Shown piece by piece: positions 235 to 13,124 of a stretch of 13,362 nucleotides of DNA. The position numbers were made by a program, and so were the translations under genes. The notes below the pieces were generated by a model, which did no database searches, was not told the origin of the DNA, and saw nothing but the letters and a program-made list of their open reading frames with translations. Position 1 is the first letter of the stretch. Each line of letters begins with the position of its first letter. This DNA is from an uncultured archaeon. GTDB taxonomy: Archaea; Iainarchaeota; Iainarchaeia; Iainarchaeales; CSSED10-239. Where the stretch lies: NCBI GenBank assembly GCA_964468895.1, contig CAYXWT010000012.1:3939-17300 (forward strand), written 5' to 3'.

Positions 235-975
235 ATGAATTTATTACTTTTTCCATTAATTATAATCTGTTTCATTTTTTTAATTTATTATGGTTATAAG
301 GATTTAAAATTTAGAGAGATAAATATATTACCCTTAATATTCTTTAGTTTGTTTTCTATTATTTATCAAGGTTTATTTATATTTAAAGATAATTTATTTC
401 TTTGGAAAATGTATGGTTTACAAATAGCAATTTCATTAATATTTGTTTTAATAATTTATTTTTTAGGAAGAATATCTACTTTTGCTTATATTGGAGAAGG
501 AGATTTGTATATAATTTTAATGATATCATTTAGTTGTGGTTTTGTAGTGTTATTTTCAGAAATTATTTTTTTAATAGCTTTAATTTTAATGTTATTTATA
601 CCTATATATCTATTTATTAAAAATCTAATTTTTAAAAATATACCTAAGTATTCTTTTTTTAAATCTATAATCATAATGTTTTTAGGCACACCTAAAGATA
701 TTACTAAAATTAATAGTTTTTATACACCTTTAGAAACTCTAAAATTAAAAGATAATAAAATAATTAGAAATATAGATATTACTCCTAATTTTGATTCTGA
801 AAAAGAATTAACAAATATTAAAATAATATCTCAATCTAAAAAAATTGGAAAAATATGGGTTTCACCATTGATTCCTTTTATTATACCAATTATTATTTCA
901 TACGTAATTACAATTATTCTTTTTTTAGGGAAATATTTTGTGGATTTTGGAATATTTATGATTCCTTATATATAA
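235..975 (+). CDS. Peptidase A24 family aspartyl prepilin/preflagellin peptidase (FlaK/PibD/EppA-like, no methyltransferase domain)
   Basis: 246-aa polytopic membrane protein. The first catalytic Asp context is 'YGYKD23LKFREI' (codon 301-303). The second is the GxGD motif 'AYIGEGD90LY' (codon 502-504). The Asp-Asp spacing of about 67 residues is typical of archaeal A24 enzymes. A C-terminal 'VSPLIPFIIP' segment resembles the conserved Pro-rich last TM. A polar insert of roughly 80 aa (nt 619-855) lies between TM blocks. Confidence 0.8.
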   Translation: MNLLLFPLIIICFIFLIYYGYKDLKFREINILPLIFFSLFSIIYQGLFIFKDNLFLWKMYGLQIAISLIFVLIIYFLGRISTFAYIGEGDLYIILMISFSCGFVVLFSEIIFLIALILMLFIPIYLFIKNLIFKNIPKYSFFKSIIIMFLGTPKDITKINSFYTPLETLKLKDNKIIRNIDITPNFDSEKELTNIKIISQSKKIGKIWVSPLIPFIIPIIISYVITIILFLGKYFVDFGIFMIPYI

Positions 976-1037: not shown

Positions 1038-3644
1038 TTGTTTGATTTTAAGAAGAATATGGTAGAACTTAAAAAAATACTTACAAAAATATCTGAAGAT
1101 AAGTCTAGAAGTGAGACTCTAAATAAAAATAAGTTTACTCTATCTAATAAAGTAGATCCTAAATTTAAAAATAAACTTAAAAAATTAGATATATTTAATG
1201 TAAGTGTAAATAAAAAACTTTTAGGTAACTATAAAATAACTGAAAATATCTCTAAAGTATTGAAACCTATTAATAAAAAAACTATTAAAAATGATGTTGA
1301 ACTAGTTGATAATAAGAACATAAATACACATGTTTTAAAAAAGCAAGATGTTTCAAATTCTAAAAATGTTGATATTAACCAAATTATATTTAATAAGACT
1401 TTAAAGAAGTCTACCGAAATTAAAAAAGATAAAGAAAAACAAGTTTATTTTGAATCTATAAGTTTTTTAGATGCTAAAGATAAAGAATCAGAAGATGTTG
1501 TAGATAAGTTATTAGATAAATTAAATAAAAAAACAAGTGAAATAAATGCTGACAAAAGCTTTATTGAAAGAATCTCATTTTTAGATTATGAACCTAAAAT
1601 TAAAAAAATGCATTTTAAAGATTCAAATATAGAGCATTTATATTCAAGGTTTGATGATATTGAAAAATCTTTAAAAAATAAAAATCAGCCGGTATCTAAA
1701 TCTTCTAAAAATAAACCTAAAGCTTTGTTTGTTGAAGATATAAATATTCCTGAAATTATATCTCTAAAAGATGATGTGAAAAATAAATCTGATTTAACAA
1801 GTAAATTTTCATCAAGAGATATAGATAATTTGAAATCTACAGATAAAGATTCTAATTTTACTAATACTAAAAAAGGCCTTGATTTAAATTCAACTATTAA
1901 AAAAAATATTGAAAGTATAGATCATAAAAAAAGACAGAAAAAAGATATTAAAAAATTAGTGGTAGAATTTAGAAATAAAGATTTAGATAAAAGTGCTTTG
2001 AAAAATATAATGCCAGAATCTAAAAATAATTCTGATTTATCTTTAAGTTTATCTAATAAAAATAATTTAGATAATACTAATTTACCAATAAGAAATTCAG
2101 TTAGTTCTAAAGAATCACAAGACTTTATGTTTCCTAAAGATTCATCATCATATGTTTCTTCAAATAAAATTAATAAAGATATTGTGCAAAATAGTTTATC
2201 TTCAAAAATGTTATCTTCTTCTTATGATATTAATTCCGCAAATGGAGAACAATTTTCAAAATTAATTTATTCTAAGTCTATTGATAGTAGTTTTAATATA
2301 GATAAAGTAAATGATAGATATAATATTGATGATTTTACTTATGTTGACATAAGTGTAAAGATAGATAAATTATTTTATGATATTGTTCAACCAAAGTTGG
2401 AACCAAAACAGAAAGAAGTGTTTAAAGATATAAAAAAATTATTTTTAGATTCAATAGACCAAAATTATTATTCCTTTAGAGGAGATAAACATAGTATTTC
2501 TAGATATATTAAAAAAGTTTATGAAGTTGTTCTTAATAAGTTATCTTATAATCTTAGTAAACTTGACAAAAAACTATATTTATTATATATTGAAAATGAT
2601 TTTTCAGGCCTTGGATTTTTGTCAAGTTTATTAAAAGATAGAAATATAATTGAAGTTAGTTGTAGGGGTGCTAACTTGCCTATAACTGTTTATCATGTTA
2701 AATATGGAGTTATAGATACAAATATTGATTTTGAATCTATTGCAAAATTAAATATATTTGTTTTGTCTTTAACTAAATTAATGGGTTTGCATGTAAATTC
2801 AAATGCACCTATAATTAATGGCTATCTTCCGAATGGATATAAGGTAGAAGGTTTATATTCTGTAGGAGATATTAGTAGTAAAGGTTCATCTTTTGTAATA
2901 AAAAAATATCTTGAAGAACCACTGACACCAATATCTTTAATAAATTTAGGTATAGGTATTGTAGATATATTTGCTTATCTTTGGTGGGCAATAAATAATA
3001 ATTATAATTTAGTTGTTAGTGGTATTGCTGATAAAAGTATGATAATAAACACTTTAGCATTATTATATCCTAATAAGCAAATAATAAGTATACAACCTCA
3101 AGATAATCTAAAGCTTCCACAAAAAAATTGGATTAAAAGAATAGTGTACAATAATTCTCAAGTTAATATTAAAACAATTTTAGATCAAAGTATTTCTGAA
3201 AAACCAGATTATTTAATTGTTGAAAACTTTACAAGTGATTTATTTGATACACAGTGGTATAATATTAATTTATTAGATATTAAAAATAATGTTTTGCCAG
3301 AATATATTAACAAAATAAAATTAATAGGTCAAAAAACAATATTAATTAAATTAGATAGATTAAAAACACAATCTAAAGAACAAATACAAATTAAAGAAAT
3401 ATTTGAATATAATCATAATTCTGAAAAGCAAATATTCAATTTAGAATCTAAATCTGAATTTAAAGTAGATTTATTATCTTCTGAAATTAGTATAGTAGAT
3501 TTAAATAAAAGAAAAGAGATTTTGAATTGGATGATTGATTCTAAAGTTATTAATTATAAAGATTTTAATAGTGTTGTTAATGATTATTATATTGATTCTA
3601 AGAAATTACTTACAAAATTAGGAATTATTGATAACAAAAGTTAA
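1038..3644 (+). CDS. FlaI/GspE-superfamily ATPase paralog with degenerate catalytic motifs (probable pseudo-ATPase) and a long low-complexity N-terminal extension
   Basis: 868 aa. The C-terminal half carries FlaI-type landmarks: 'YDIVQPKLEPKQKE', 'GFLSSLLKDRNIIEVSCRG', 'INGYLPNGYKVEG', 'GSSFVIKKY' and 'LPQKNWI'. The Walker A position reads 'VVSGIADKSMI' (3018-3038) instead of GxxGSGKTT. The Asp box reads 'ISIQPQDNL'. The Walker B region reads 'KPDYLIVENF' (3201-3230). No His box is visible, and no other GxxxxGK[ST] occurs in the protein. Residues 1 to about 430 are Lys/Asn/Ser-rich. The track start is TTG at 1038; an in-frame ATG at 1059 is an equally plausible start. Confidence 0.75.
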   Translation: MFDFKKNMVELKKILTKISEDKSRSETLNKNKFTLSNKVDPKFKNKLKKLDIFNVSVNKKLLGNYKITENISKVLKPINKKTIKNDVELVDNKNINTHVLKKQDVSNSKNVDINQIIFNKTLKKSTEIKKDKEKQVYFESISFLDAKDKESEDVVDKLLDKLNKKTSEINADKSFIERISFLDYEPKIKKMHFKDSNIEHLYSRFDDIEKSLKNKNQPVSKSSKNKPKALFVEDINIPEIISLKDDVKNKSDLTSKFSSRDIDNLKSTDKDSNFTNTKKGLDLNSTIKKNIESIDHKKRQKKDIKKLVVEFRNKDLDKSALKNIMPESKNNSDLSLSLSNKNNLDNTNLPIRNSVSSKESQDFMFPKDSSSYVSSNKINKDIVQNSLSSKMLSSSYDINSANGEQFSKLIYSKSIDSSFNIDKVNDRYNIDDFTYVDISVKIDKLFYDIVQPKLEPKQKEVFKDIKKLFLDSIDQNYYSFRGDKHSISRYIKKVYEVVLNKLSYNLSKLDKKLYLLYIENDFSGLGFLSSLLKDRNIIEVSCRGANLPITVYHVKYGVIDTNIDFESIAKLNIFVLSLTKLMGLHVNSNAPIINGYLPNGYKVEGLYSVGDISSKGSSFVIKKYLEEPLTPISLINLGIGIVDIFAYLWWAINNNYNLVVSGIADKSMIINTLALLYPNKQIISIQPQDNLKLPQKNWIKRIVYNNSQVNIKTILDQSISEKPDYLIVENFTSDLFDTQWYNINLLDIKNNVLPEYINKIKLIGQKTILIKLDRLKTQSKEQIQIKEIFEYNHNSEKQIFNLESKSEFKVDLLSSEISIVDLNKRKEILNWMIDSKVINYKDFNSVVNDYYIDSKKLLTKLGIIDNKS

Positions 3645-3674: not shown

Positions 3675-4517
3675 ATGTTTGGAAAATTTATAACTAAAAT
3701 ATCAATTTTTTTATTTTCAGATATTAATAAGATTATTTCTCCCTATTTTAAAAATTTATCTAAAGTTCTGAATTATGCAAATATTGGTGAAGATCTAAAT
3801 TCTTATCTTTGTAATGCTTTGTTTATATCTTTTATTTTTGCAATTGTTTTAGAATTTTTAATGATATTTGTAATGTTAAAAATAAATATATTTTTTACAA
3901 TATTAAGTTTTTTAATAACTATATTTTTATCATTTACTTTTGCTGCAATAATTTTTTTTGTATTTTATAGATATCCTTTTTATTTAATAAATTCTAAAAA
4001 AACAGAAGTTGAATTTGAAATAAAGAATAGTCTAAAACATCTTTCAGCTCTTAGAGATAAAGATTTAACTGTTAGAGATATTTTGTTATTATTGCAAAAA
4101 CTAGAATTTAATTCAATTTTAACAATAGAATGTAAAAAAGTACTTTCAATGTCTAGTATTAATAAAAATTTAAGAGGTACTTTAGAATTTATTTGTAAAA
4201 ATACCTATTCAGAATTAGAATATGATTTTTTTAAAAAATTAATAGATGTTATTGATAATAAGAAAATACTTTCAGATGTTATCACAGAATTTTTAGAAAA
4301 TGTAGAACAAAGTATTAGATCTCAAAATGAACAAAGAAAAACTAAAATTAATTTGTTATTTCAAGTAAACATATTTTTGTTTTTTTTAATATTTATACTA
4401 GTATTTGGTGTGTTTTTAACATCTATATTTATACCTCAAATACACAGTATTTTATTAATGATTGCAATTATTTTTCCTATAATTGAAATAATATTAATTA
4501 TTGTATTAAATAAATAA
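3675..4517 (+). CDS. Single-domain T2SSF (TadB/TadC/FlaJ-half-like) type IV filament platform membrane protein, module 1 first half
   Basis: 280 aa. N-terminal TM helices are followed by a cytoplasmic helical segment of about 120 aa ('EFEIKNSLKHLSALRDKDLTVRDILLLLQ...LRGTLEFICKNTYSELEYDFFKKLIDVIDN...ITEFLENVEQSIRSQNEQRKTKINLL'). C-terminal TM helices complete the protein. This is the T2SSF fold pattern. It lies immediately (30 nt) downstream of an ATPase-family gene. Confidence 0.7.
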   Translation: MFGKFITKISIFLFSDINKIISPYFKNLSKVLNYANIGEDLNSYLCNALFISFIFAIVLEFLMIFVMLKINIFFTILSFLITIFLSFTFAAIIFFVFYRYPFYLINSKKTEVEFEIKNSLKHLSALRDKDLTVRDILLLLQKLEFNSILTIECKKVLSMSSINKNLRGTLEFICKNTYSELEYDFFKKLIDVIDNKKILSDVITEFLENVEQSIRSQNEQRKTKINLLFQVNIFLFFLIFILVFGVFLTSIFIPQIHSILLMIAIIFPIIEIILIIVLNK

Positions 4518-4527
4518 AGATATATTT

Positions 4528-5700
4528 ATGACTAAAATAGACACAACATCAAAAAATAAAATTAATAAGAAGTTTAAAATATTGTTCTTTAAATATGAGT
4601 ATACAATTTTAGATTTCGCAGGTGTTATCTGTGGTTTATTAATAATAGCAATTGCTAATAGATATTTTGTAGGTAGTAAAATATATTTTTTAGTTTTTGT
4701 TTTTGGATTATTAATTGGTTTATTTGGTTTTTTAATAGAATATTTTATAAAAAATGAAAAACGAAAAACTTTAGAAAAAGAATTGGCTTATTTTTTAAAA
4801 GATTTATCTAGAGATTATAAAAAAACCAAAAATCTATCTTTAGCTCTTGCAAATGTTGCTAAATCTAATTTTTATGGTAGTATTAATAGTGAAATAAAAA
4901 TCATTTCTTTAAGAGTATCTTGGGGTGAAGAATTTGAAGATGCTTTGAAGTCTGCAAATCAAAATATTCAAAGTAATGTTATAATTCATACTTTAAAACT
5001 ATTGTCTGCTATGAAATATTCTAAAATTCCTTATTATAGAGTTCTTGAAAATATATCTAAAGATTTGAATGTATTTAATATTGAAAAAAGCAATAAAAAA
5101 TATTTTTTAAGCTTGTTTAGGTTATCTGTTGTTTTTTATTTTATATTTATTTTTGTAATAATATATATAGATTTTATAATTGGTAAAAACTTTTTATGGT
5201 TTTCTGATAGTACTGAACTTACTAGAATATTTTTTGATAATTTTCTACTTTATATTTCATTATTATTATCTTTTTTTACTGCTTTTGTAATGTACACTAT
5301 TAATAATAAAAAGACTATTATCTTACTTAAATATGTAACCATTTTCTTTTTAATAACTATATTTATGTTTCAAATATTTATACCTAAACCTGATGCTAAT
5401 GAAGCTATTACTGATACTATAAATTATTTAGAAAATACAAATAATTTATATGATCAATCTTATTTACAAGAAAACATTTTTATTTCTAAAATAATTTCTA
5501 CAAAATCATTAAGTTCTGCACAAATTATTAATAATAGTTGTGCTAAAGAATTAAATTTCATTTCATTTCATAATTATAACTGTGGTTCTTCTTGTTATGA
5601 ATCTATAATTGTAATTGAAGAACCAACTTTTTTTGATTTTGAAATTCAGAATCTTGAAGATAATAAATTTATAATTTATTATCAAGAATATATAAACTAA
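4528..5700 (+). CDS. Single-domain T2SSF (TadB/TadC-like) platform protein, module 1 second half, with an extra C-terminal extracytoplasmic Cys-containing domain
   Basis: 390 aa. After the TM region comes a helical cytoplasmic segment ('LEKELAYFLKDLSRDY...WGEEFEDALKSANQNIQSNVIIHTLKLLSAMKY...VLENISKDLNVFNIEKSNKK'), then several TM helices. A polar tail of about 105 aa (nt 5383-5697) contains 'NNSCAKELNFISFHNYNCGSSCYES'. The start is 10 nt after the previous stop. Confidence 0.65.
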   Translation: MTKIDTTSKNKINKKFKILFFKYEYTILDFAGVICGLLIIAIANRYFVGSKIYFLVFVFGLLIGLFGFLIEYFIKNEKRKTLEKELAYFLKDLSRDYKKTKNLSLALANVAKSNFYGSINSEIKIISLRVSWGEEFEDALKSANQNIQSNVIIHTLKLLSAMKYSKIPYYRVLENISKDLNVFNIEKSNKKYFLSLFRLSVVFYFIFIFVIIYIDFIIGKNFLWFSDSTELTRIFFDNFLLYISLLLSFFTAFVMYTINNKKTIILLKYVTIFFLITIFMFQIFIPKPDANEAITDTINYLENTNNLYDQSYLQENIFISKIISTKSLSSAQIINNSCAKELNFISFHNYNCGSSCYESIIVIEEPTFFDFEIQNLEDNKFIIYYQEYIN

Positions 5701-5712
5701 TAATTTGGATTT

Positions 5713-6075
5713 GTGATTGTTTTGCTTAAAAATATAACTAAGAATAAAATTATGTCTAAAAATACAAAATTTGCAGATAATTTTTTTAAACGTGCAAAAG
5801 GATTAATGTTTAGTTCTAGAAATAATTTTAATTATTCTTTAATTTTTGATTTAGAAAGAAATACAGTACTTGGAGCTTCTATTCATATGTTTTTTGTGTT
5901 TTTTCCTATAAATTTAATCTTTGTAGATGAAAATAAAAAAATTGTAGAAATTAAAAGGAACTTAAAACCATTTCAAATTTATAATCCTAAACATTATTGT
6001 AGATATATAATTGAATTTCCTATTGAATTTGATATTAAAAGTACAACTGTTTCTGATTTATTATCTTGGAATTAA
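5713..6075 (+). CDS. DUF192 (COG1430-like) family protein
   Basis: 'FADNFFKRAKGLMF...SIHMFFVFFPINLIFVDENKKIVEIKRNLKPFQIYNP...CRYIIEFP' matches the DUF192 pattern (GLM motif, hydrophobic-MxxxxxPhD/N-hhF-hD, P-[WF] loop, final hhE-h-P). The track start is GTG at 5713; the in-frame ATG at 5752 (MSKNTKF...) is the more likely true start. Confidence 0.65.
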   Translation: MIVLLKNITKNKIMSKNTKFADNFFKRAKGLMFSSRNNFNYSLIFDLERNTVLGASIHMFFVFFPINLIFVDENKKIVEIKRNLKPFQIYNPKHYCRYIIEFPIEFDIKSTTVSDLLSWN

Positions 6076-6141: not shown

Positions 6142-7932
6142 ATGTATATAGAAACAAAAATTAAAGATCCAAAAGATTTAATTAAATATCTAAATACAAA
6201 TAAAATTAATCTATTTCTTAATTGTCCTTATAACTTTAAAAATAAAGATGCTCTTAATATCTTTAATTGTAAAGATTGTAAAGACCCTAAATGTTTATTA
6301 GCTTGTAAAAAAGGAGCAATATATTTCTCTTCAAAAGGAATACTTTCAATAGATCAAAATCTTTGTAATGGTTGTGGTGATTGTGTTAGAGCTTGTGAAC
6401 ATAATGCAATTATATTAAGAGATAAGAAAGCATATAAGTGTGATATGTGTGCTAATAATTCTTTTTTAATGCCATGTTATTATAATAATAAAGATATTCT
6501 TAATTTTGTATCTTCAGGAAAATTTATAAATGAAATTTATGAGAAATATTTAGGATATATTATAGATTCTGATTTTAAAGTTTTAAAAAATATTAGTAAA
6601 GATTATAAAATTTTAGAAGATACTAACAAAGATTTAAGGTATGTCATTGATCACCCTAATCTTTCTATTCAAGAAATACAAATTATAAATAATATTTTAG
6701 ATCAATATAAATTTAAAGAAATTAATTTTAAAGAAACAAATGATATTTCTAGTACTGTAAAAAAAGATTTAGAAAAAGAACTTGTAAACTACTGTTATAG
6801 TAATTCTATAGAATTAGATCCAGATCAATTTACTTATATTTTAAATTTAACTTATTTAAATTTATATAAATTTGGACCAATTACTAGTTTATTAGAAGAT
6901 AATGATCTTGAAGAAGTAACAATAATCGATATTAATAAACCATTATATGTTTTTCATAGAACTTTTGGATGGTTAAAAACAAATATAATTTATATTTCTG
7001 AAAATATTTTAAAAGATTTAGTTAATAAATTATGTTGGGAATCTAATAAATTTATTACATTAAAAAATCCATTATTAGATTCTACCATATCAGGAAATTC
7101 AAGATTAAATGCAGTAATTAGTCCAATTACATCTACTTGTGCAATAACTATTAGAAAATTTAGTGCTAAAGAATTTACAGTTTATGATTTAATTAAATTA
7201 AAAACAATTTCACTTGAAGCAATTTCTTTTTTATCATTAGTATTTTTAACAGATTCTAATGTTTTTGTAGTTGGTAATACTGGTTCAGGAAAAACAACAA
7301 CTCTAAATGCATTCTTAAAATTAATACCTATTAACGAACGGATTATAACTGTTGAAGAAGTAAGAGAAATAAGAATTCCTCATAAACATAAAGTTAACTT
7401 ACTTGTAAATAAAGATTTAGATATAAATTTAGAAAAGCTTGTTATTAATACTCTTAGAATGAGGCCAGATAGAGTTGTTATTGGAGAAATTAGAAATAAA
7501 GATGAATGTTTTGCATTAGTAGATTCTTTACTTTGTGGTCAAGCTAAAGGCACTTATACTACTTTTCATTCTCAAAGTAGTAGAGATGCAATTCAAAGAT
7601 TAATATCTTATGGAGTTTTAGAAAATGATCTTGGAGCAGTAGATTTAATAGTAAATCAAAGAAGATATAATAAATATAAAAATAATTGTTTTAGAGAATA
7701 TAGAACTGTATTTGAAATTTGTGAAGTTTTATTTGAAAATAATAAAGTTAAACTGAATATACTTTATGAATTTGATGTTTCTAAAAATAAATTAATATCT
7801 AAGAATAATTCTATTAAAATCTTTGAAAAACTAAAAATAACTTATGGGATTAATACTTATAAAGAACTTAATAAGTTATTAAAATCTAAATCTAAAGATA
7901 TATCTAAAAGATTAGAAGAATATTTTAATTAA
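6142..7932 (+). CDS. FlaI/TadA-like type IV filament assembly ATPase with canonical motifs, fused to an N-terminal multi-cysteine ferredoxin-like (4Fe-4S type) domain
   Basis: 596 aa. The N-terminus holds 12 Cys in residues 28-112, including CKDCKDPKCLLAC and the textbook CNGCGDCVRACEHNAI, plus CDMC-x8-C. The ATPase part carries 'YVIDHPNLSIQEIQ', 'GPITSLLEDNDLEEVTI', 'AITIRKF', Walker A 'VVGNTGSGKTTTLNA' (GNTGSGKTT = 7273-7299), Asp box 'RIITVEEVREI', Walker B 'LRMRPDRVVIGEIRNKDE' (7465-7494) and His box 'GTYTTFHS'. Confidence 0.85.
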   Translation: MYIETKIKDPKDLIKYLNTNKINLFLNCPYNFKNKDALNIFNCKDCKDPKCLLACKKGAIYFSSKGILSIDQNLCNGCGDCVRACEHNAIILRDKKAYKCDMCANNSFLMPCYYNNKDILNFVSSGKFINEIYEKYLGYIIDSDFKVLKNISKDYKILEDTNKDLRYVIDHPNLSIQEIQIINNILDQYKFKEINFKETNDISSTVKKDLEKELVNYCYSNSIELDPDQFTYILNLTYLNLYKFGPITSLLEDNDLEEVTIIDINKPLYVFHRTFGWLKTNIIYISENILKDLVNKLCWESNKFITLKNPLLDSTISGNSRLNAVISPITSTCAITIRKFSAKEFTVYDLIKLKTISLEAISFLSLVFLTDSNVFVVGNTGSGKTTTLNAFLKLIPINERIITVEEVREIRIPHKHKVNLLVNKDLDINLEKLVINTLRMRPDRVVIGEIRNKDECFALVDSLLCGQAKGTYTTFHSQSSRDAIQRLISYGVLENDLGAVDLIVNQRRYNKYKNNCFREYRTVFEICEVLFENNKVKLNILYEFDVSKNKLISKNNSIKIFEKLKITYGINTYKELNKLLKSKSKDISKRLEEYFN

Positions 7933-7950: not shown

Positions 7951-8688
7951 ATGAATTTAAATTTGATTTTTTCTAAGAAAAAAGTAATACTTTATTTAGT
8001 TATATTTTTTAGTTTAGTGTTATTATATGTTTTATTATATTTTGTATTTAACTTAGAAATTAAATTTAGATATTTAATTTACTTTTTTATATTTGTAAGT
8101 GTGTTTTATTTTGCAATATTTTTTTTTATAGACACCTTAAAAAAGCAAAATATTTCTAAAGAAATATCTAGAGAACTACCTTTCTTTTTAAATAATCTTG
8201 GTAATGATTTAGATAAAGGTGTTGATTTTAAAAGAGCATTAGAAAATAGAACTTTAGATAATACTTTATTAAGTAAGAAAATAAAAAAAGCTTTAGAAAA
8301 TACTAATCTTAAGGGTTTTAGTATAAAAGATAGTTTGTTAGAAATAAGTTTTGATAATAGTGAATTAAATGATGTTATTATTCAAATAATAAATATCCTA
8401 GAATTTGGATCTAAAAACAAATCTTATTCTTTAAATATAATATCTGAAAGTCTAGTTAATAAACAAAATCTTAAATTAAAAAACTTTTCTTCTAAGTTAA
8501 ATTTGATTACTTTGATATATATTGTTATTTCTACTATACTTCCTGCGATGATATTGATATTTTTTATAGTTGGAAGTAATTTCTTTGAACTTAGTTTCTC
8601 AAAGTTTAGTATTATTTTTATAATAACTATATTATTCCCTATAATAGATATGTTTTTATTATTTTTTTTAAAAAGTACTATGCCTTAG
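7951..8688 (+). CDS. Single-domain T2SSF (TadB/TadC-like) platform membrane protein, module 2 first half
   Basis: 245 aa. Two N-terminal TM helices are followed by a cytoplasmic helical segment ('ISRELPFFLNNLGNDLDKGVDFKRALEN...KKALENTNLKGFSIKDSLLEIS...VIIQIINILEFGSKN...IISESLVNKQNLKLKNFSSKLNLI'), then C-terminal TM helices. It starts 18 nt after the ATPase stop. Confidence 0.7.
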   Translation: MNLNLIFSKKKVILYLVIFFSLVLLYVLLYFVFNLEIKFRYLIYFFIFVSVFYFAIFFFIDTLKKQNISKEISRELPFFLNNLGNDLDKGVDFKRALENRTLDNTLLSKKIKKALENTNLKGFSIKDSLLEISFDNSELNDVIIQIINILEFGSKNKSYSLNIISESLVNKQNLKLKNFSSKLNLITLIYIVISTILPAMILIFFIVGSNFFELSFSKFSIIFIITILFPIIDMFLLFFLKSTMP

Positions 8689-8721: not shown

Positions 8722-9537
8722 ATGAATTTAAAAAATAAAAAATTAATCACAATTTATTTTTCGGTAATTGTGATTATAATTTCCTTTGTACTTAATTGGT
8801 CTTTATTTAAGGTGTTTTTAGGTTTAATAATAATTAATTTTTTTTATTATTTAGTATTATATCTTATAGATAAATATAATATTCATCTTCAGAAACAAGA
8901 ATTTGAAAAACAATTAATAAACAATATTTTAAGTATTTGTGCATTGGATAGTGTTAATTTAAAATTAATAATTTATAAATTTGCAAGTTCAAAATCAAAA
9001 TTAATATCTAAGGAATTTTCCTTTATTAAATTTAAATTAAATCAAGGTCATAAAATAGAAGAGTTATTTAAAATTCTTAGAGTTAAATATAATTCTAATA
9101 TTTTAAATAAATTTTTAGATTTATTATTAATATCTAGAACTTTTGGAACAACTTCAAATAAAGATTTTAAATATCTTGTAGAGAACTTCTTAGATTCTAA
9201 AAATATAATTAAGCAAAGAGAATCTTTATTGTTATTACAAAAATATACTATTTTTATGTGCTCAGCTATTGTTTTACCTGCTATTATAAGTGTTGTAATA
9301 GAACTTGTTAAAAGTTTAAATACATCTTTAGACTTTAGTAGTTTTGGTTTTGTTGTATCTAGTAATCTATTTTCTACTGTGTACTATTGTGCTTTAATAT
9401 ATATTTTTGAGTATATTTTAATATCTTCTTTTTATTTAAGTTTTATAGAAAACAATAACTCTAAATTTATTGTGTATTTATTGATATTATTACCAATAAG
9501 TATATTTATATTCTTTATATCTAAGTATATTATATAG
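8722..9537 (+). CDS. Single-domain T2SSF (TadB/TadC-like) platform membrane protein, module 2 second half
   Basis: 271 aa with the same architecture. N-terminal TM helices precede the helical segment 'FEKQLINNILSICAL...EFSFIKFKLNQGHKIEELFKILRVKYNSNILNKFLDLLLISRTFGT...YLVENFLDSKNIIKQRESLLLLQKY', followed by TM helices. The sequence is more diverged, so the call rests largely on architecture and position. Confidence 0.6.
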   Translation: MNLKNKKLITIYFSVIVIIISFVLNWSLFKVFLGLIIINFFYYLVLYLIDKYNIHLQKQEFEKQLINNILSICALDSVNLKLIIYKFASSKSKLISKEFSFIKFKLNQGHKIEELFKILRVKYNSNILNKFLDLLLISRTFGTTSNKDFKYLVENFLDSKNIIKQRESLLLLQKYTIFMCSAIVLPAIISVVIELVKSLNTSLDFSSFGFVVSSNLFSTVYYCALIYIFEYILISSFYLSFIENNNSKFIVYLLILLPISIFIFFISKYII

Positions 9538-9551
9538 GATATAGGTGTAGA

Positions 9552-10175
9552 ATGATGTTTTTTGAAAGTTTGTTTTCTTTTATATTAAGTAATATTAATT
9601 ATTATACAATTTTTATATTAATGATAATAGAAAGTAGTTTTATTCCATTTCCTTCTGAAATTATATTAATACCTGCAGGGGTGTTATGTTCATTAGGAGA
9701 TTTGAATTTATTTTTGTGTGTTTTTTGTGGTGCTTTTGCTTCATTAATAGGTGCTTTAATTAATTATTTTATTGGTAAAAAATTAGGAAGATCTTATATT
9801 TTAAAACATCAAAAATTATTTTTTATAAATAAAAAGCATTTACATAATAGTGAGCATTTTTTTAAAAAATATGGTAACATAACAACTTTTGTAGGCAGAT
9901 TAATTCCTGTAATAAGACAGTATATTTCAATACCAGCAGGTTTTTCAAATATGAATTTATTTAAGTTTTCTATATTTACTTTTTTAGGTGCATTTATTTG
10001 GTCTGGTTTTCTTGTTTTTATAGGTTATTTCTTTGCAGAAAATGCAAATAGTTTATTATCTTTATATAATAATATATTAGTTATAATAATAGCACTATTT
10101 TTAATAGCTATTTTACTTGTAAAAGTTTTTTCAAGGAAATTTAATAAGAATAAATCTAAACAACATATAAAATAA
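9552..10175 (+). CDS. dedA: DedA / VTT (SNARE-associated) family membrane protein
   Basis: 207 aa with both hallmark re-entrant loop motifs: 'MIIESSFIPFPSEIILIPAG' and 'FVGRLIPVIRQYISIPAGF'. The length and TM layout are right for the family. GGTG (9544-9547) lies 4 nt upstream of the ATG as an SD. Confidence 0.85.
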   Translation: MMFFESLFSFILSNINYYTIFILMIIESSFIPFPSEIILIPAGVLCSLGDLNLFLCVFCGAFASLIGALINYFIGKKLGRSYILKHQKLFFINKKHLHNSEHFFKKYGNITTFVGRLIPVIRQYISIPAGFSNMNLFKFSIFTFLGAFIWSGFLVFIGYFFAENANSLLSLYNNILVIIIALFLIAILLVKVFSRKFNKNKSKQHIK

Positions 10176-10350: not shown

Positions 10351-10782
10351 ATGCACATATCTAAAATTTGTTTAATATTATTAATATTCTTATTCTTTTT
10401 TAATATAAATTTTATATTTAGTGAAAATCCAATTGTAGAACATGGATATGTTTATTATTATTATGATGATTATACTGATGTTGAACAAACAGAAGTTATA
10501 ACTCATACTTATTTAGATAGTACTTTAATATATTTTCAAACATATGATCAATCTAACAATGTTTATAGAAGTAAAACTGTTAAAGCATACCCTGATAGTA
10601 TTTTAAGTACTATTACATATTATGATTATACTGGAAATATAAACAATACTATTTGTGTACCTGATTCTTTTGATTATATTAATTATGATATTGATTATTA
10701 TGAACCATATAATTATGAATATAATGAAGTGTTTTATGATAATTCTAATGAAAATAGAAATTATTGGAATTATTGGAGATAG
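10351..10782 (+). CDS. Small secreted Tyr/Asp/Asn-rich protein of unknown function (possible YD-repeat-like beta-hairpins)
   Basis: 143 aa. The N-terminal signal-peptide-like segment is MHISKICLILLIFLFFFNINFIFS|ENP. I count about 24 Tyr, including 'GYVYYYYDDY', 'TYYDYTGNI' and 'DYINYDIDYYEPYNYEYNEVFYD'. A weak SD-like GTGAT lies upstream. Confidence 0.55.
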   Translation: MHISKICLILLIFLFFFNINFIFSENPIVEHGYVYYYYDDYTDVEQTEVITHTYLDSTLIYFQTYDQSNNVYRSKTVKAYPDSILSTITYYDYTGNINNTICVPDSFDYINYDIDYYEPYNYEYNEVFYDNSNENRNYWNYWR

Positions 10783-11018: not shown

Positions 11019-13124
11019 ATGAACAAAAATTTAATTAAAACAACTAATGGAATTTTACTTGTTTTTGTTGTTATGGCAAGTGTTCTGTTACTAAGTACTA
11101 CTATTTTTGCTTCTGAAAGTGATGATAGTTTAGAATTTGTAAATTTACAAATTAATGGGAATTCAAATATAAACGAAACAGTATTTAATGAAGATATGGT
11201 TTTAACAACTTCAGTAAATACAAATTTAAATAAAAACGATATTCAATTTATTGGTTATTTTATGATAGCTAATAATAATGGTATTTTGCCACTTTCAACT
11301 TTTGAATTTGTTATAGATAATACTGCTGCAATGAATTCAGATGGTATGAGAACATATTACCTTAAGGCTAATTTTAGTAGTTCTGAACTAAAACCAATAA
11401 TAGCTCAAGTTCAAGAAATACTTAATACAAATTATTCTCCAGAAAACGGAGATCAATTAAAAATAAAATTAGATGCAATTGTAGGTAGTGGTAATTCTCA
11501 GGAATTATTTACAAACAATCCATATCCAGAAATATCATATAATAGTATATATGATGAACCTCAAGTTATACCTGAAACAAATTATTATATTTCAGATCTA
11601 AAACAAATAATTAATGGAACTTCTACTTATAATAATTACAAATATACTTTAAATCACCCAAATAATTATCCTTTTGAATTTACATTTCAATCTAATGTAG
11701 AGTCACAAGATGTTATTTTTAAATTAGTTTTAGATGATGGTGATGATCAAACACTTTTATTTAATCAAAAAGGTGATTATATAAAAACAGCTCAACCAAT
11801 AACTCTTTCAACAGCTAGTGGAATAACAAGTGATCCTATAGCTTATAATTATAAGTATAAATTTAATTTAACTGATGATATTTTTACATCTATTGATGAT
11901 TATAAATTAGTTAGTGGAAATTATGATTTATATTTAACAGTTTCTCAAGTTAAAGCTTCACAAGGTTCAGTTACACAAGGTGTAGAAACAAGTATTCCTA
12001 GAGAAGATATTGTTATAGATTTTGAATATTCAAATAAAATTAATACTCTTCCTGAAATTGTTTCTTACAAAGCTGAAAATTTAACTATAAATGTTTCATC
12101 AGTTGATAATGTGAACGAAATGGATGATGGGTATTATGTTGTAGAATTAGGTATATATGATTCTTTAAATTTAACACTTAGTTACACTGTTGAAGGTTTA
12201 GAAGATGTTGAATTAGCTAATGCTGTATTTTTAAAATATAAAAATGATGCTGCTATATTTTATCCTGTTTTAAGATCTAAACATTGTGATAGTAGTAAAT
12301 GTGCTTATACTTATCAAGTAAGTATATATAAGTCAGTTATAGATGATAAACCTTATAAACTTGAATATAGAGTTTATTCTGCAAATGCTAGAAATCCAAA
12401 TTTAAATTATGCCACTTCAACTAATAAAGTGACTTCAACAAGATCATATAGTTCTGAAGATATAAAAGTTGTATTAAGTAATGAGTCACAAGTTTTGAAA
12501 ATACCTATTGATCATATAATTAGTTTCTATAATGATAATAGTTCAAAACTAGTTCAATATAAAACTTCAATTTCTCAAAAAAATTCTCCAACACCTATAA
12601 TTGGAATAGAACCTGAATTAGAACAAAATGTTGACAGTGATAATATAGTCAGAGATACAGATGATGAAACAAATTCTGAAGGAGAAATGGCTCAAGATTT
12701 TCAAAATAACAAAGTAGCTATAGAAAAAAGTCTTAGTGGTAAGAATGTTTCAAGTGGTATTAGTTACCCTAAAGTAAGTACTAGTACAAATAATATGTAT
12801 GCTCAAAGAGATTATTATTTAGAAAAGTTAAGTCCTATTTTAAAACAAAATGGTGTTAACTACAAATATATTACTTCTATATCTCTAAAAGATACAGGTG
12901 ATGAAGAAACAACAACATATATTTTAGAGGTTAACGAACCAAAAAAGTTTTTAGGAATTTTTAAAATTGGTGAAAGAACATATACTAAAGAAGTATCTAT
13001 TCCTACTAAAGATTTAATAAATTTAGATCTACAGTATAATAGAGCCAAGCCAAAACCTAAAATACTTACTGAAATAAAGAGTGAAGCAGTTAGTCAAACA
13101 GAATCTGATAATAGTAACAATTAA
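11019..13124 (+). CDS. Large secreted or surface protein of unknown function (candidate adhesin or surface-layer component), N-terminal signal sequence, no C-terminal anchor
   Basis: 701 aa. The N-terminus is MNKNLIKTTNG-ILLVFVVMASVLLLSTTIFA|SESDD (11019-11111). The mature part is polar and rich in Asn/Ser/Thr/Tyr, with alternating beta-strand-like patterns and many N-x-S/T sequons. It has only two Cys (HCDSSKC). An acidic linker 'DSDNIVRDTDDETNSEGE' is present. The C-terminal segment 'TTTYILEVNEPKKFLGIFKIGERTYTKEVSI' is faintly reminiscent of PepSY-like motifs (tentative). No terminal TM helix or sorting signal was seen. Confidence 0.75.
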   Translation: MNKNLIKTTNGILLVFVVMASVLLLSTTIFASESDDSLEFVNLQINGNSNINETVFNEDMVLTTSVNTNLNKNDIQFIGYFMIANNNGILPLSTFEFVIDNTAAMNSDGMRTYYLKANFSSSELKPIIAQVQEILNTNYSPENGDQLKIKLDAIVGSGNSQELFTNNPYPEISYNSIYDEPQVIPETNYYISDLKQIINGTSTYNNYKYTLNHPNNYPFEFTFQSNVESQDVIFKLVLDDGDDQTLLFNQKGDYIKTAQPITLSTASGITSDPIAYNYKYKFNLTDDIFTSIDDYKLVSGNYDLYLTVSQVKASQGSVTQGVETSIPREDIVIDFEYSNKINTLPEIVSYKAENLTINVSSVDNVNEMDDGYYVVELGIYDSLNLTLSYTVEGLEDVELANAVFLKYKNDAAIFYPVLRSKHCDSSKCAYTYQVSIYKSVIDDKPYKLEYRVYSANARNPNLNYATSTNKVTSTRSYSSEDIKVVLSNESQVLKIPIDHIISFYNDNSSKLVQYKTSISQKNSPTPIIGIEPELEQNVDSDNIVRDTDDETNSEGEMAQDFQNNKVAIEKSLSGKNVSSGISYPKVSTSTNNMYAQRDYYLEKLSPILKQNGVNYKYITSISLKDTGDEETTTYILEVNEPKKFLGIFKIGERTYTKEVSIPTKDLINLDLQYNRAKPKPKILTEIKSEAVSQTESDNSNN

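Follow-up and report, generated by a model that had tools for sequence, protein, structure and literature searches.

A catalytically degenerate relative of the FlaI/GspE2 secretion ATPases in the motor position of a type IV filament locus of Iainarchaeota

The DNA considered here (the window) is a stretch of 13,362 nucleotides from an uncultured archaeon of the Iainarchaeota (GenBank assembly GCA_964468895.1, contig CAYXWT010000012.1, positions 3,939 to 17,300 of the forward strand). A coding sequence at 1059..3644 of the plus strand encodes an 861-amino-acid protein, referred to below as the pseudo-ATPase, which very probably descends from the FlaI/GspE2 branch of the PilT-like secretion ATPases and is conserved as a non-catalytic protein. 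Every current model of a type IV filament known to us, including those of pili, archaella and type II secretion, places an ATP-hydrolysing hexamer of the PilB/FlaI type under the platform protein. To judge from its residues, the protein that fills this motor slot in a lineage of small-genome archaea has no plausible means of binding ATP, and it is nevertheless kept under purifying selection.

The loss of the nucleotide-handling motifs had been proposed in an earlier inspection of the letters alone (the sequence-only reading), where the motifs were located by eye. Their columns were set here by a HMMER alignment to the structure of GspE from Archaeoglobus fulgidus (afGspE, PDB code 2OAP) and by MAFFT multiple alignments, and three independent alignments agree that the columns are not shifted and that a functional P-loop is lacking. 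The peptide VVSGIADKSMIINTLAL is encoded at 3012-3062, and within it the segment SGIADKS (3018..3038) stands in the place of the canonical Walker A motif GxxxxGK[ST], with two residues deleted and both glycines lost. The alignment requires a 2-residue gap at this point (SG--IADKS in the window versus G.T.SGKT) and sets the K-S of ADKS against the K-T of GKT, which refines the column of the sequence-only reading and shows that K-S is retained. This vestige is confined to the window and, as R-S, to the related locus L018, while the other 34 orthologue sequences have acidic or hydrophobic residues there together with a 3-residue deletion, the usual replacement being G-x-[D/E]-[D/E]. No Walker-A-like string occurs anywhere in the pseudo-ATPase of the window, and the pattern G4xGK[ST], which nearly all of the nearest outgroup proteins possess, is absent from every one of the 36 distinct sequences of the clade.

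The remaining motifs are altered in the same way. The Asp box has become ISIQPQDNL (3084..3110), where the Mg-coordinating glutamate is replaced by a glutamine that is invariant in all 36 sequences. The Walker B remnant KPDYLIVENF (3201..3230; KPDYLIVENFTSDLF begins at 3201) has Glu-Asn in place of Gly-Glu. An acidic residue, always Asp or Glu across the clade, thus occupies the glycine position, one position early, and the position of the catalytic glutamate is taken by N, D, E, H, Q, Y or V, with Asn in the window. The His-box region is shortened and the alignments place no histidine at its columns. Both arginine fingers are replaced by lysines in the HMMER alignment, Lys595 (2841..2843) at the position of finger 1 (afGspE R208) and Lys615 (2901..2903) at that of finger 2 (afGspE R227), where IRK has become IKK. 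At the first of these ‘GYK’ is the majority consensus of the clade, with the lysine kept in 12 of the 14 members of alignment A4 (P0002 has V; P0012 has SGYK), and at the second K188/K189 are invariant in alignment A2.

In the family as described by McCallum et al. (2017; PMC5424180) the Walker A and Walker B motifs, the catalytic glutamate, the Asp-box glutamate, which coordinates Mg2+, and the two arginine fingers are completely conserved, and the histidine of the His box is highly conserved. The residues listed there as conserved in active members are exactly those replaced in the pseudo-ATPase. The canonical secretion ATPase encoded further downstream in the window retains GSGKT, GEIR and TFHS. 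Among the 90 best relatives, Walker A is missing only in the pseudo-ATPase clade, in P0025 and in P0089. The last of these has GRT for GKT and GD for GE and lacks the His-box histidine, and P0080 likewise has GD for GE; erosion of the motifs may have occurred more than once in this subfamily.

The clade is well delimited. A search of 5.8 billion proteins returned six close homologues at 48–55% identity, followed by a gap to the canonical ATPases, and a profile search run exhaustively over 1.84 billion cluster representatives gave 17 clusters at 559–738 bits, followed by scores of at most 254 bits. A scan of one genome per species yielded 15 loci, all from metagenome-assembled genomes (MAGs) of Iainarchaeota/Diapherotrites or from MAGs classified only as ‘archaeon’, and including the complete genome of Ca. 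Forterrea multitransposorum. The pooled set amounts to 36 distinct orthologue sequences, 48–57% identical, none of which carries GK[ST] or otherwise returns to canonical motifs.

Selection on the protein is evident from the ratio of non-synonymous to synonymous substitution rates (dN/dS), which by the Nei-Gojobori method is 0.04–0.24 for closer pairs over the 421 C-terminal codons. The sequence-only reading was therefore right in regarding the gene as one under purifying selection rather than a decaying pseudogene. Between the window and its nearest relative, L018, the ratio is 0.115 for the N-terminal domain of the ATPase fold, 0.29 for the C-terminal domain and 0.17 for the C-terminal tail, values comparable to the 0.11–0.28 of the neighbouring genes, and it is 0.185 for the downstream ATPase; the C-terminal domain is thus still constrained, though less so than the N-terminal one. 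The same asymmetry is seen in the identity to canonical relatives, 34–37% for the N-terminal domain versus 18–23% for the C-terminal domain, whereas pairs of canonical proteins are roughly equal in both. On these identities the C-terminal domain has diverged selectively.

In a neighbour-joining tree the clade is monophyletic with a long stem and lies beside canonical GspE2-like ATPases, far from the clade of the downstream ATPase of the window. Its sister is P0025, which also lacks Walker A. Since the clade is monophyletic and its sister is degenerate as well, a single ancient loss is likely, and the distance between the two clades makes the pseudo-ATPase a deep paralogue of its neighbour. A recent duplication of that neighbour is ruled out by the identity of 14–22% and by the tree.

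The fold is retained, as the sequence-only reading had supposed, and phmmer, AlphaFold 2 (AF2) and Foldseek agree on a FlaI/GspE-like protein. The C-terminal 434–440 residues match afGspE (2OAP) with E=3e-42 and FlaI (PDB code 4II7) with E=1.6e-24 in phmmer, while the match to the neighbouring ATPase in BLASTP is at E=6e-11, with 22% identity over 207 residues. The AF2 model of the fold has a predicted local distance difference test score (pLDDT) of 85 and a predicted template modelling score (pTM) of 0.77, and contains the two-domain architecture of the PilT-like/VirB11-like superfamily, an N-terminal PAS-like domain and a RecA-like C-terminal domain. In the P-loop region a strand (237–241) is followed by a 4-residue loop and a helix, so that the loop is shortened but the topology retained. 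Foldseek places 2OAP (8e-33) and 4II7 (3e-30) at the top of its PDB matches, which also include CpaF, VirB11, PilB and PilT; the probability is 1.00 for 2OAP, 4II7, CpaF, VirB11 and PilT.

Family models capture this protein poorly. Pfam T2SSE (PF00437; gathering threshold 24.9 bits) gives no match to the pseudo-ATPase at E<=0.1 but a score of 119.6 bits for the neighbouring ATPase, and precomputed Pfam domains are lacking in 6/6 of the close homologues. The best-scoring curated family is the NCBIfam FlaI/ArlI equivalog NF058587, at 120.3 bits versus a cut-off of 550, and its match spans profile positions 17–357 of 527, stopping at Walker B. A match to Adcy_cons_dom in the family scans is spurious.

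The open reading frame (ORF) named in the sequence-only reading, 1038-3644, is present in the window. Its frame stands; its true start is most likely the ATG at 1059 rather than the TTG at 1038 from which the ORF was mechanically drawn, because ATG 1059 yields the sequence MVELKKI, identical to the database protein P0009 and common to many orthologue N-termini. The first 419 residues (1059..2315) form a K/N/S-rich extension that is predicted, from the conservation profile and AF2, to be mostly disordered. The AF2 model of the first 453 residues has a mean pLDDT of 49.6, with values below 50 over most of the extension and two islands of higher confidence. Island 1 (residues 145–209; 1491..1685) is a predicted helix, hairpin and helix with pLDDT 57–78, and carries the motif D.LL..L..KT...F.E..SFLD.PK..KI....NLYSKID with invariant L155, E170, S173, F174, P179 and L194; among all ORFs of the loci examined this motif is confined to the pseudo-ATPase family. 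Island 2 (residues 261–306; 1839..1976) is a predicted β-hairpin followed by a long helix, with pLDDT 76–87 and partial conservation. Shorter conserved motifs are ELKKI at the N-terminus, EEI..P.I...DD (226–240), DYILP.D (355–361) and LVY.

The dN/dS of the extension versus L018 is 0.74. It is probably translated, since a frame of 420 codons runs uninterrupted through DNA of 20% G+C. Canonical relatives also show IPEI-like and Y.LIP-like motifs, and P0024 an SFLD-like motif, so the extension is older than the loss of catalysis. In the orthologous locus L001 (2897-5375) the extension is called as two genes, of 160 and 523 amino acids, and a 681-codon open frame overlaps both. A frameshift or sequencing error could account for this, or the extension could be truly split.

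The secretion-ATPase fold begins with an N-terminal domain (residues 420–640; 2316..2978), aligned to afGspE/FlaI, which is the most conserved part of the protein (LPNGYKVEGLYSVGD, GSSFVIKKYL, PLTP; conservation 0.6–0.83). The sequence-only reading described the motifs of this domain as well preserved, which holds in comparison with afGspE-type relatives (LPDGSR.., GSSFTIRKF, HENWI), but not with the neighbouring ATPase, against which they had been read. The degenerate RecA-like C-terminal domain (residues 641–800; 2979..3458), in which AF2 retains the strand-loop-helix topology, lacks about 28 residues present in canonical relatives. It is followed by a C-terminal helical tail (3459..3644) common to afGspE/PilB3-type ATPases, seen as a match to Pfam PilB3_C (E=3.4e-4, below the cut-off) and as a second HMMER stretch to 2OAP.

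The gene belongs to a compact module. The window has about 20% G+C and all of its ORFs of at least 100 amino acids lie on the plus strand, in the order class III signal peptidase, pseudo-ATPase, two T2SSF/FlaJ-like genes, DUF192, an ATPase with an N-terminal Fe-S domain, two platform-like genes, VTT/DedA and two unannotated ORFs. The class III (prepilin) signal peptidase (235..975; Pfam Arc_PepC_II, E=2.5e-11) is the first gene of the conserved module and lies directly upstream of the pseudo-ATPase gene in every related locus long enough to show the position. The pseudo-ATPase gene heads its own platform module, as the sequence-only reading noted. Platform protein 1 (3675..4517) is a TadB/FlaJ-like half, matched by Pfam T2SSF (E=3.6e-5) and NCBIfam ArlJ/FlaJ (E=5e-8) and syntenic in 15 loci; platform protein 2 (4528..5700) is a TadC/FlaJ-like half with an extra C-terminal region, matched by T2SSF at E=4.3e-3 and syntenic in 12 loci, and its counterpart in L021 matches T2SSF at Pfam strength. 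The DUF192 gene (5713..6075; Pfam DUF192, E=1.1e-13) is the conserved last gene of the core module. This family (COG1430) is a fixed member of the module in 14 loci.

The order peptidase, pseudo-ATPase, platform 1, platform 2 and DUF192 is found in all 17 further loci where it is visible, with the exception of L012, and the sister lineage (L021) has the same core operon without DUF192. In L003, L010, L013, L014 and L017 DUF192 is followed by one to three genes that encode typical class III signal peptides (KK[G/S/A]-ISP/AII...). Some of these pilin-like genes carry very large C-terminal regions, up to 1216 amino acids (L017 13782-21257; L010 13798-17281; L014 13719-16169), which suggests pilin-adhesin fusions. 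No class III signal peptides were found among the ORFs of the window, where the hydrophobic segment at the N-terminus of the 701-amino-acid ORF at 11019 does not amount to a clear class III signal. Neither archaellin nor an ArlH/ArlJ context is present near the pseudo-ATPase gene. With an ATPase homologue and two platform genes, the locus has the composition by which archaeal type IV filament system 1/Epd-like loci are recognized.

The second ATPase of the window (6142..7932) is a secretion ATPase of canonical type, fused at its N-terminus to a 2x[4Fe-4S] ferredoxin domain (Pfam T2SSE, E=1.7e-34, and Fer4 families). It is followed by two platform-like membrane proteins (7951-8688 and 8722-9537, the first matching T2SSF at E=3.2e-4) and a VTT/DedA protein (9552-10175). 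Homologues of this Fe-S ATPase are abundant, with dozens of clusters at 35–60% identity, the named ones mostly from Iainarchaeota/Diapherotrites and Micrarchaeota. The succession of ATPase, two membrane proteins and VTT recurs in L018, L019, L020, L027 and L028, and Fe-S modules contain two or three membrane proteins. None of the Fe-S modules inspected has peptidase or pilin genes. The two modules therefore look complementary, one having the peptidase, pilins, platform and a dead ATPase, and the other a live ATPase and a platform without substrates.

The Fe-S ATPase directly adjoins the pseudo-ATPase module only in the window and in L018. In a third genome (JAQVTI010000004.1) the two are on one contig and strand, the Fe-S ATPase 16 kilobases (kb) downstream, and in L028 a DUF192 gene lies 10 kb upstream of the Fe-S ATPase, with an L16-methyltransferase-NDK block in between. 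That block is downstream of the pseudo-ATPase module in most genomes and upstream of the Fe-S ATPase module in L019 and L028. In L018 NDK (204-662) precedes the peptidase, and the two modules are contiguous; compared with L005, L006, L008, L009, L019 and L028, this suggests a rearrangement in the sublineage of the window and L018. No second T2SSE-type gene is found within 10 kb in 15 loci, and apart from L018 the same distance around the orthologues contains none of the Fe-S-module membrane genes, the DedA gene or the two downstream ORFs of the window, so that adjacency to the Fe-S ATPase is not a conserved feature. These last two ORFs (10351-10782, 143 amino acids; 11019-13124, 701 amino acids) have no family matches and no detectable homologues in related loci; both have N-terminal hydrophobic segments and may be lineage-specific surface proteins.

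Among the canonical relatives of the pseudo-ATPase, P0038, P0042, P0055, P0059, P0060, P0063, P0065-P0069 and P0075 contain large insertions with the hallmarks of inteins/homing endonucleases within the ATPase domain. Most of these insertions are placed between Walker B and the His box, and there are proteins with two of them. In P0024 two complete ATPases are fused in tandem.

The explanation slightly favoured here is that the pseudo-ATPase is a non-catalytic ring or adaptor on its own platform and that energy is supplied in trans. The protein would form a static ring or adaptor docked on its cognate pair of platform proteins through the strongly conserved N-terminal domain and the inter-domain region, and the disordered extension of about 420 residues, with its conserved motifs, would recruit partners. 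Energy for pilin polymerization would be provided in trans, most plausibly by the module of the canonical Fe-S-domain ATPase. The motor is sought in trans because the 15 loci have no second T2SSE gene within 10 kb, and because the Fe-S module, which has neither peptidase nor pilins, is nearby in some genomes. Taken by itself, a structural or adaptor role on the platform has about an even chance, and the identification of the Fe-S ATPase as the trans motor is tentative and, on balance, doubtful. It is unlikely that the two modules form a fully split machine, in which a platform with a permanently dead ATPase-fold ring organizes the peptidase and pilins and recruits partners by a disordered arm, while a separate, redox-sensing Fe-S ATPase with its own platform supplies all of the energy.

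Several observations weigh against this explanation. The loss of ATP binding is deduced from sequence and models, the AF2 fold model was built on a shallow alignment of 10 sequences and the neighbour-joining tree carries no support values. In the window the Lys-Ser pair persists at the end of the shortened loop, and the lysines at both arginine-finger positions, together with the invariant acidic residue in Walker B, make an anionic ligand or a novel site possible. The Fe-S ATPase has its own platform pair and need not serve the pseudo-ATPase module, and the case for a motor in trans is drawn from locus segments. In L012 (8756-11676) DUF192 directly follows the pseudo-ATPase gene and both platform genes are missing from the locus, an arrangement that could be a deletion, a relocation or a misassembly.

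Part of this evidence would suit nucleotide binding or hydrolysis through a non-canonical site, with the motif columns being misleading: K-S stands at the helix start in the window, the Walker B acid is invariant, one subclade keeps D-E (‘VDEF’) and lysines occupy the arginine-finger positions. This is nonetheless highly improbable, given that K-S is limited to the window and L018 (the 34 others being acidic or hydrophobic with their 3-residue deletion), that the Asp-box glutamate is invariantly glutamine, that the domain has lost the His box and about 28 residues, and that T2SSE gives no match at E<=0.1 and the FlaI match ends at Walker B. That the gene is a decaying pseudogene, or an ordinary ATPase gene distorted by sequencing or assembly, has a negligible probability. 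Nothing beyond the motif loss itself speaks for it, and the 861-codon open frame in DNA of 20% G+C and the confident AF2 model speak against it; pseudogene, frameshift and assembly artefact alike are refuted by the same losses in 36 independent sequences from many samples and assemblies and by dN/dS far below 1.

Other alternatives accept the loss of catalysis and differ in what the protein does. It might serve as a lock or brake, a regulator rather than a permanent subunit, with the dead ring competing with an active ATPase for the platform and either holding filaments static, for instance in stable attachment, or gating assembly. Its fold and its conserved N-terminal domain and linker suit occupation of the ATPase docking site, an active ATPase co-occurs in the same neighbourhood and no dedicated retraction ATPase gene is present in the loci examined. 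However, its fixed place in the operon at the ‘motor’ position, with a dedicated platform pair, suggests a stoichiometric component, and the Fe-S ATPase has a separate platform pair; a brake is accordingly held to be an unlikely role. The separate pairs, one after each ATPase, argue also against mixed hexamers in which the pseudo-ATPase would be a regulatory subunit and dead and live subunits would alternate as α and β do in F1. Such hexamers would be in line with the common fold and with the location of the genes, which adjoin in the window and L018 and share one contig in the third genome. Yet the two proteins are only 14–22% identical and fall in clades far apart, their genes do not adjoin in 15 of 17 other loci, and the pseudo-ATPase has the 420-residue extension and a different C-terminal tail. 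Co-assembly is very improbable and is the least favoured of the mechanistic options in the sequence-only reading, which also included an inactive hexamer and a scaffold. Exaptation for a job outside filament assembly, for example as a membrane-anchored hub that recruits machinery by its extension, with the pilus context being historical, would be consistent with the conserved motifs and two small predicted modules of the extension, found in no other ORF of the loci, and with the L012 gene that has no adjacent platform genes. It is quite improbable in view of the gene order with peptidase, platform and pilin genes, which is very stable both in the clade and in its sister lineage, and parts of the extension (IPEI, Y.LIP) are also present in canonical relatives.

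If the pseudo-ATPase is indeed a structural ring, the role of the fold, such as docking, templating or locking, would be separable from catalysis, and the protein would offer a natural mimic of the ‘ATP-free state’ for structural work on the interface between ATPase and platform. If the machine is split, it would be the first type IV filament system with an obligate pseudo-enzyme in the motor position of a pilin-bearing locus and power from a second module. There are also consequences for annotation: because Pfam T2SSE misses the protein, automated censuses could score such loci as having no ATPase, while looser family models could count it as a working one. Two surveys of archaeal type IV filaments are in line with the view in the sequence-only reading that pseudo-ATPases lie outside the standard archaeal model. 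Inactivated ATPases are not mentioned in the 2016 census of archaeal type IV pili (PMC4858521), and the ATPases analysed by Sivabalasarma & Albers (2026 preprint) are stated there to have functional ATPase binding motifs. A literature search that did not cover most subscription journals found nothing relevant on pseudo-ATPases, or on inactivated or degenerate ATPases, in type IV filament systems.

The best match among known systems, in both sequence and structure, is the clade of afGspE and FlaI-GspE2, which has the same two domains and the same C-terminal helical tail. Long N-terminal extensions are found also in the nearest canonical relatives, whose loci consist of small genes, the ATPase and then two T2SSF platform genes, an arrangement that agrees with the system 1 type described below. 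The pseudo-ATPase differs from them in the replacement of all catalytic and nucleotide-binding residues, in the C-terminal domain shortened by about 28 residues and in its 420-residue clade-specific extension. The archaellum motor ATPase FlaI/ArlI (PDB codes 4II7 and 4IHQ) also has the same fold, but the pseudo-ATPase is non-catalytic by sequence, has no archaellum genes nearby and scores far under the equivalog cut-off.

At the level of the locus the closest counterpart is system 1, a type of archaeal type IV filament system in methanogens and DPANN archaea (Sivabalasarma & Albers 2026 preprint). System 1/Epd-like loci, like that of the pseudo-ATPase, combine an ATPase homologue, two platform genes and a dedicated class III peptidase, and pilin genes are present in several loci orthologous to that of the window; the pseudo-ATPase module is distinguished by the lack of ATPase binding motifs and by the additional DUF192 gene. 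The P0025 lineage (GCA_043821385.1, L021) resembles it in having the peptidase, an 824-amino-acid protein without Walker A, two T2SSF genes, a long extension and the motif IP..V.KDE. Unlike members of the pseudo-ATPase clade, P0025 has no P-loop deletion, keeps the Asp-box glutamate and has no DUF192 gene downstream.

In two other cases type IV filament machines use degenerate NTPase folds for structural or regulatory purposes rather than as motors. ArlH/FlaH is a KaiC/RecA-like partner of ArlI with an incomplete Walker B motif, and TadZ is an atypical ParA/MinD-like protein of Tad pili. Both offer a functional analogy only, as they belong to other protein families and are not inactivated copies of a PilB/FlaI motor, and ArlH at least still binds ATP. 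The pseudo-ATPase, by comparison, descends from the motor of type IV filaments itself and is a pseudo-enzyme throughout its lineage; it is not a new kind of system.

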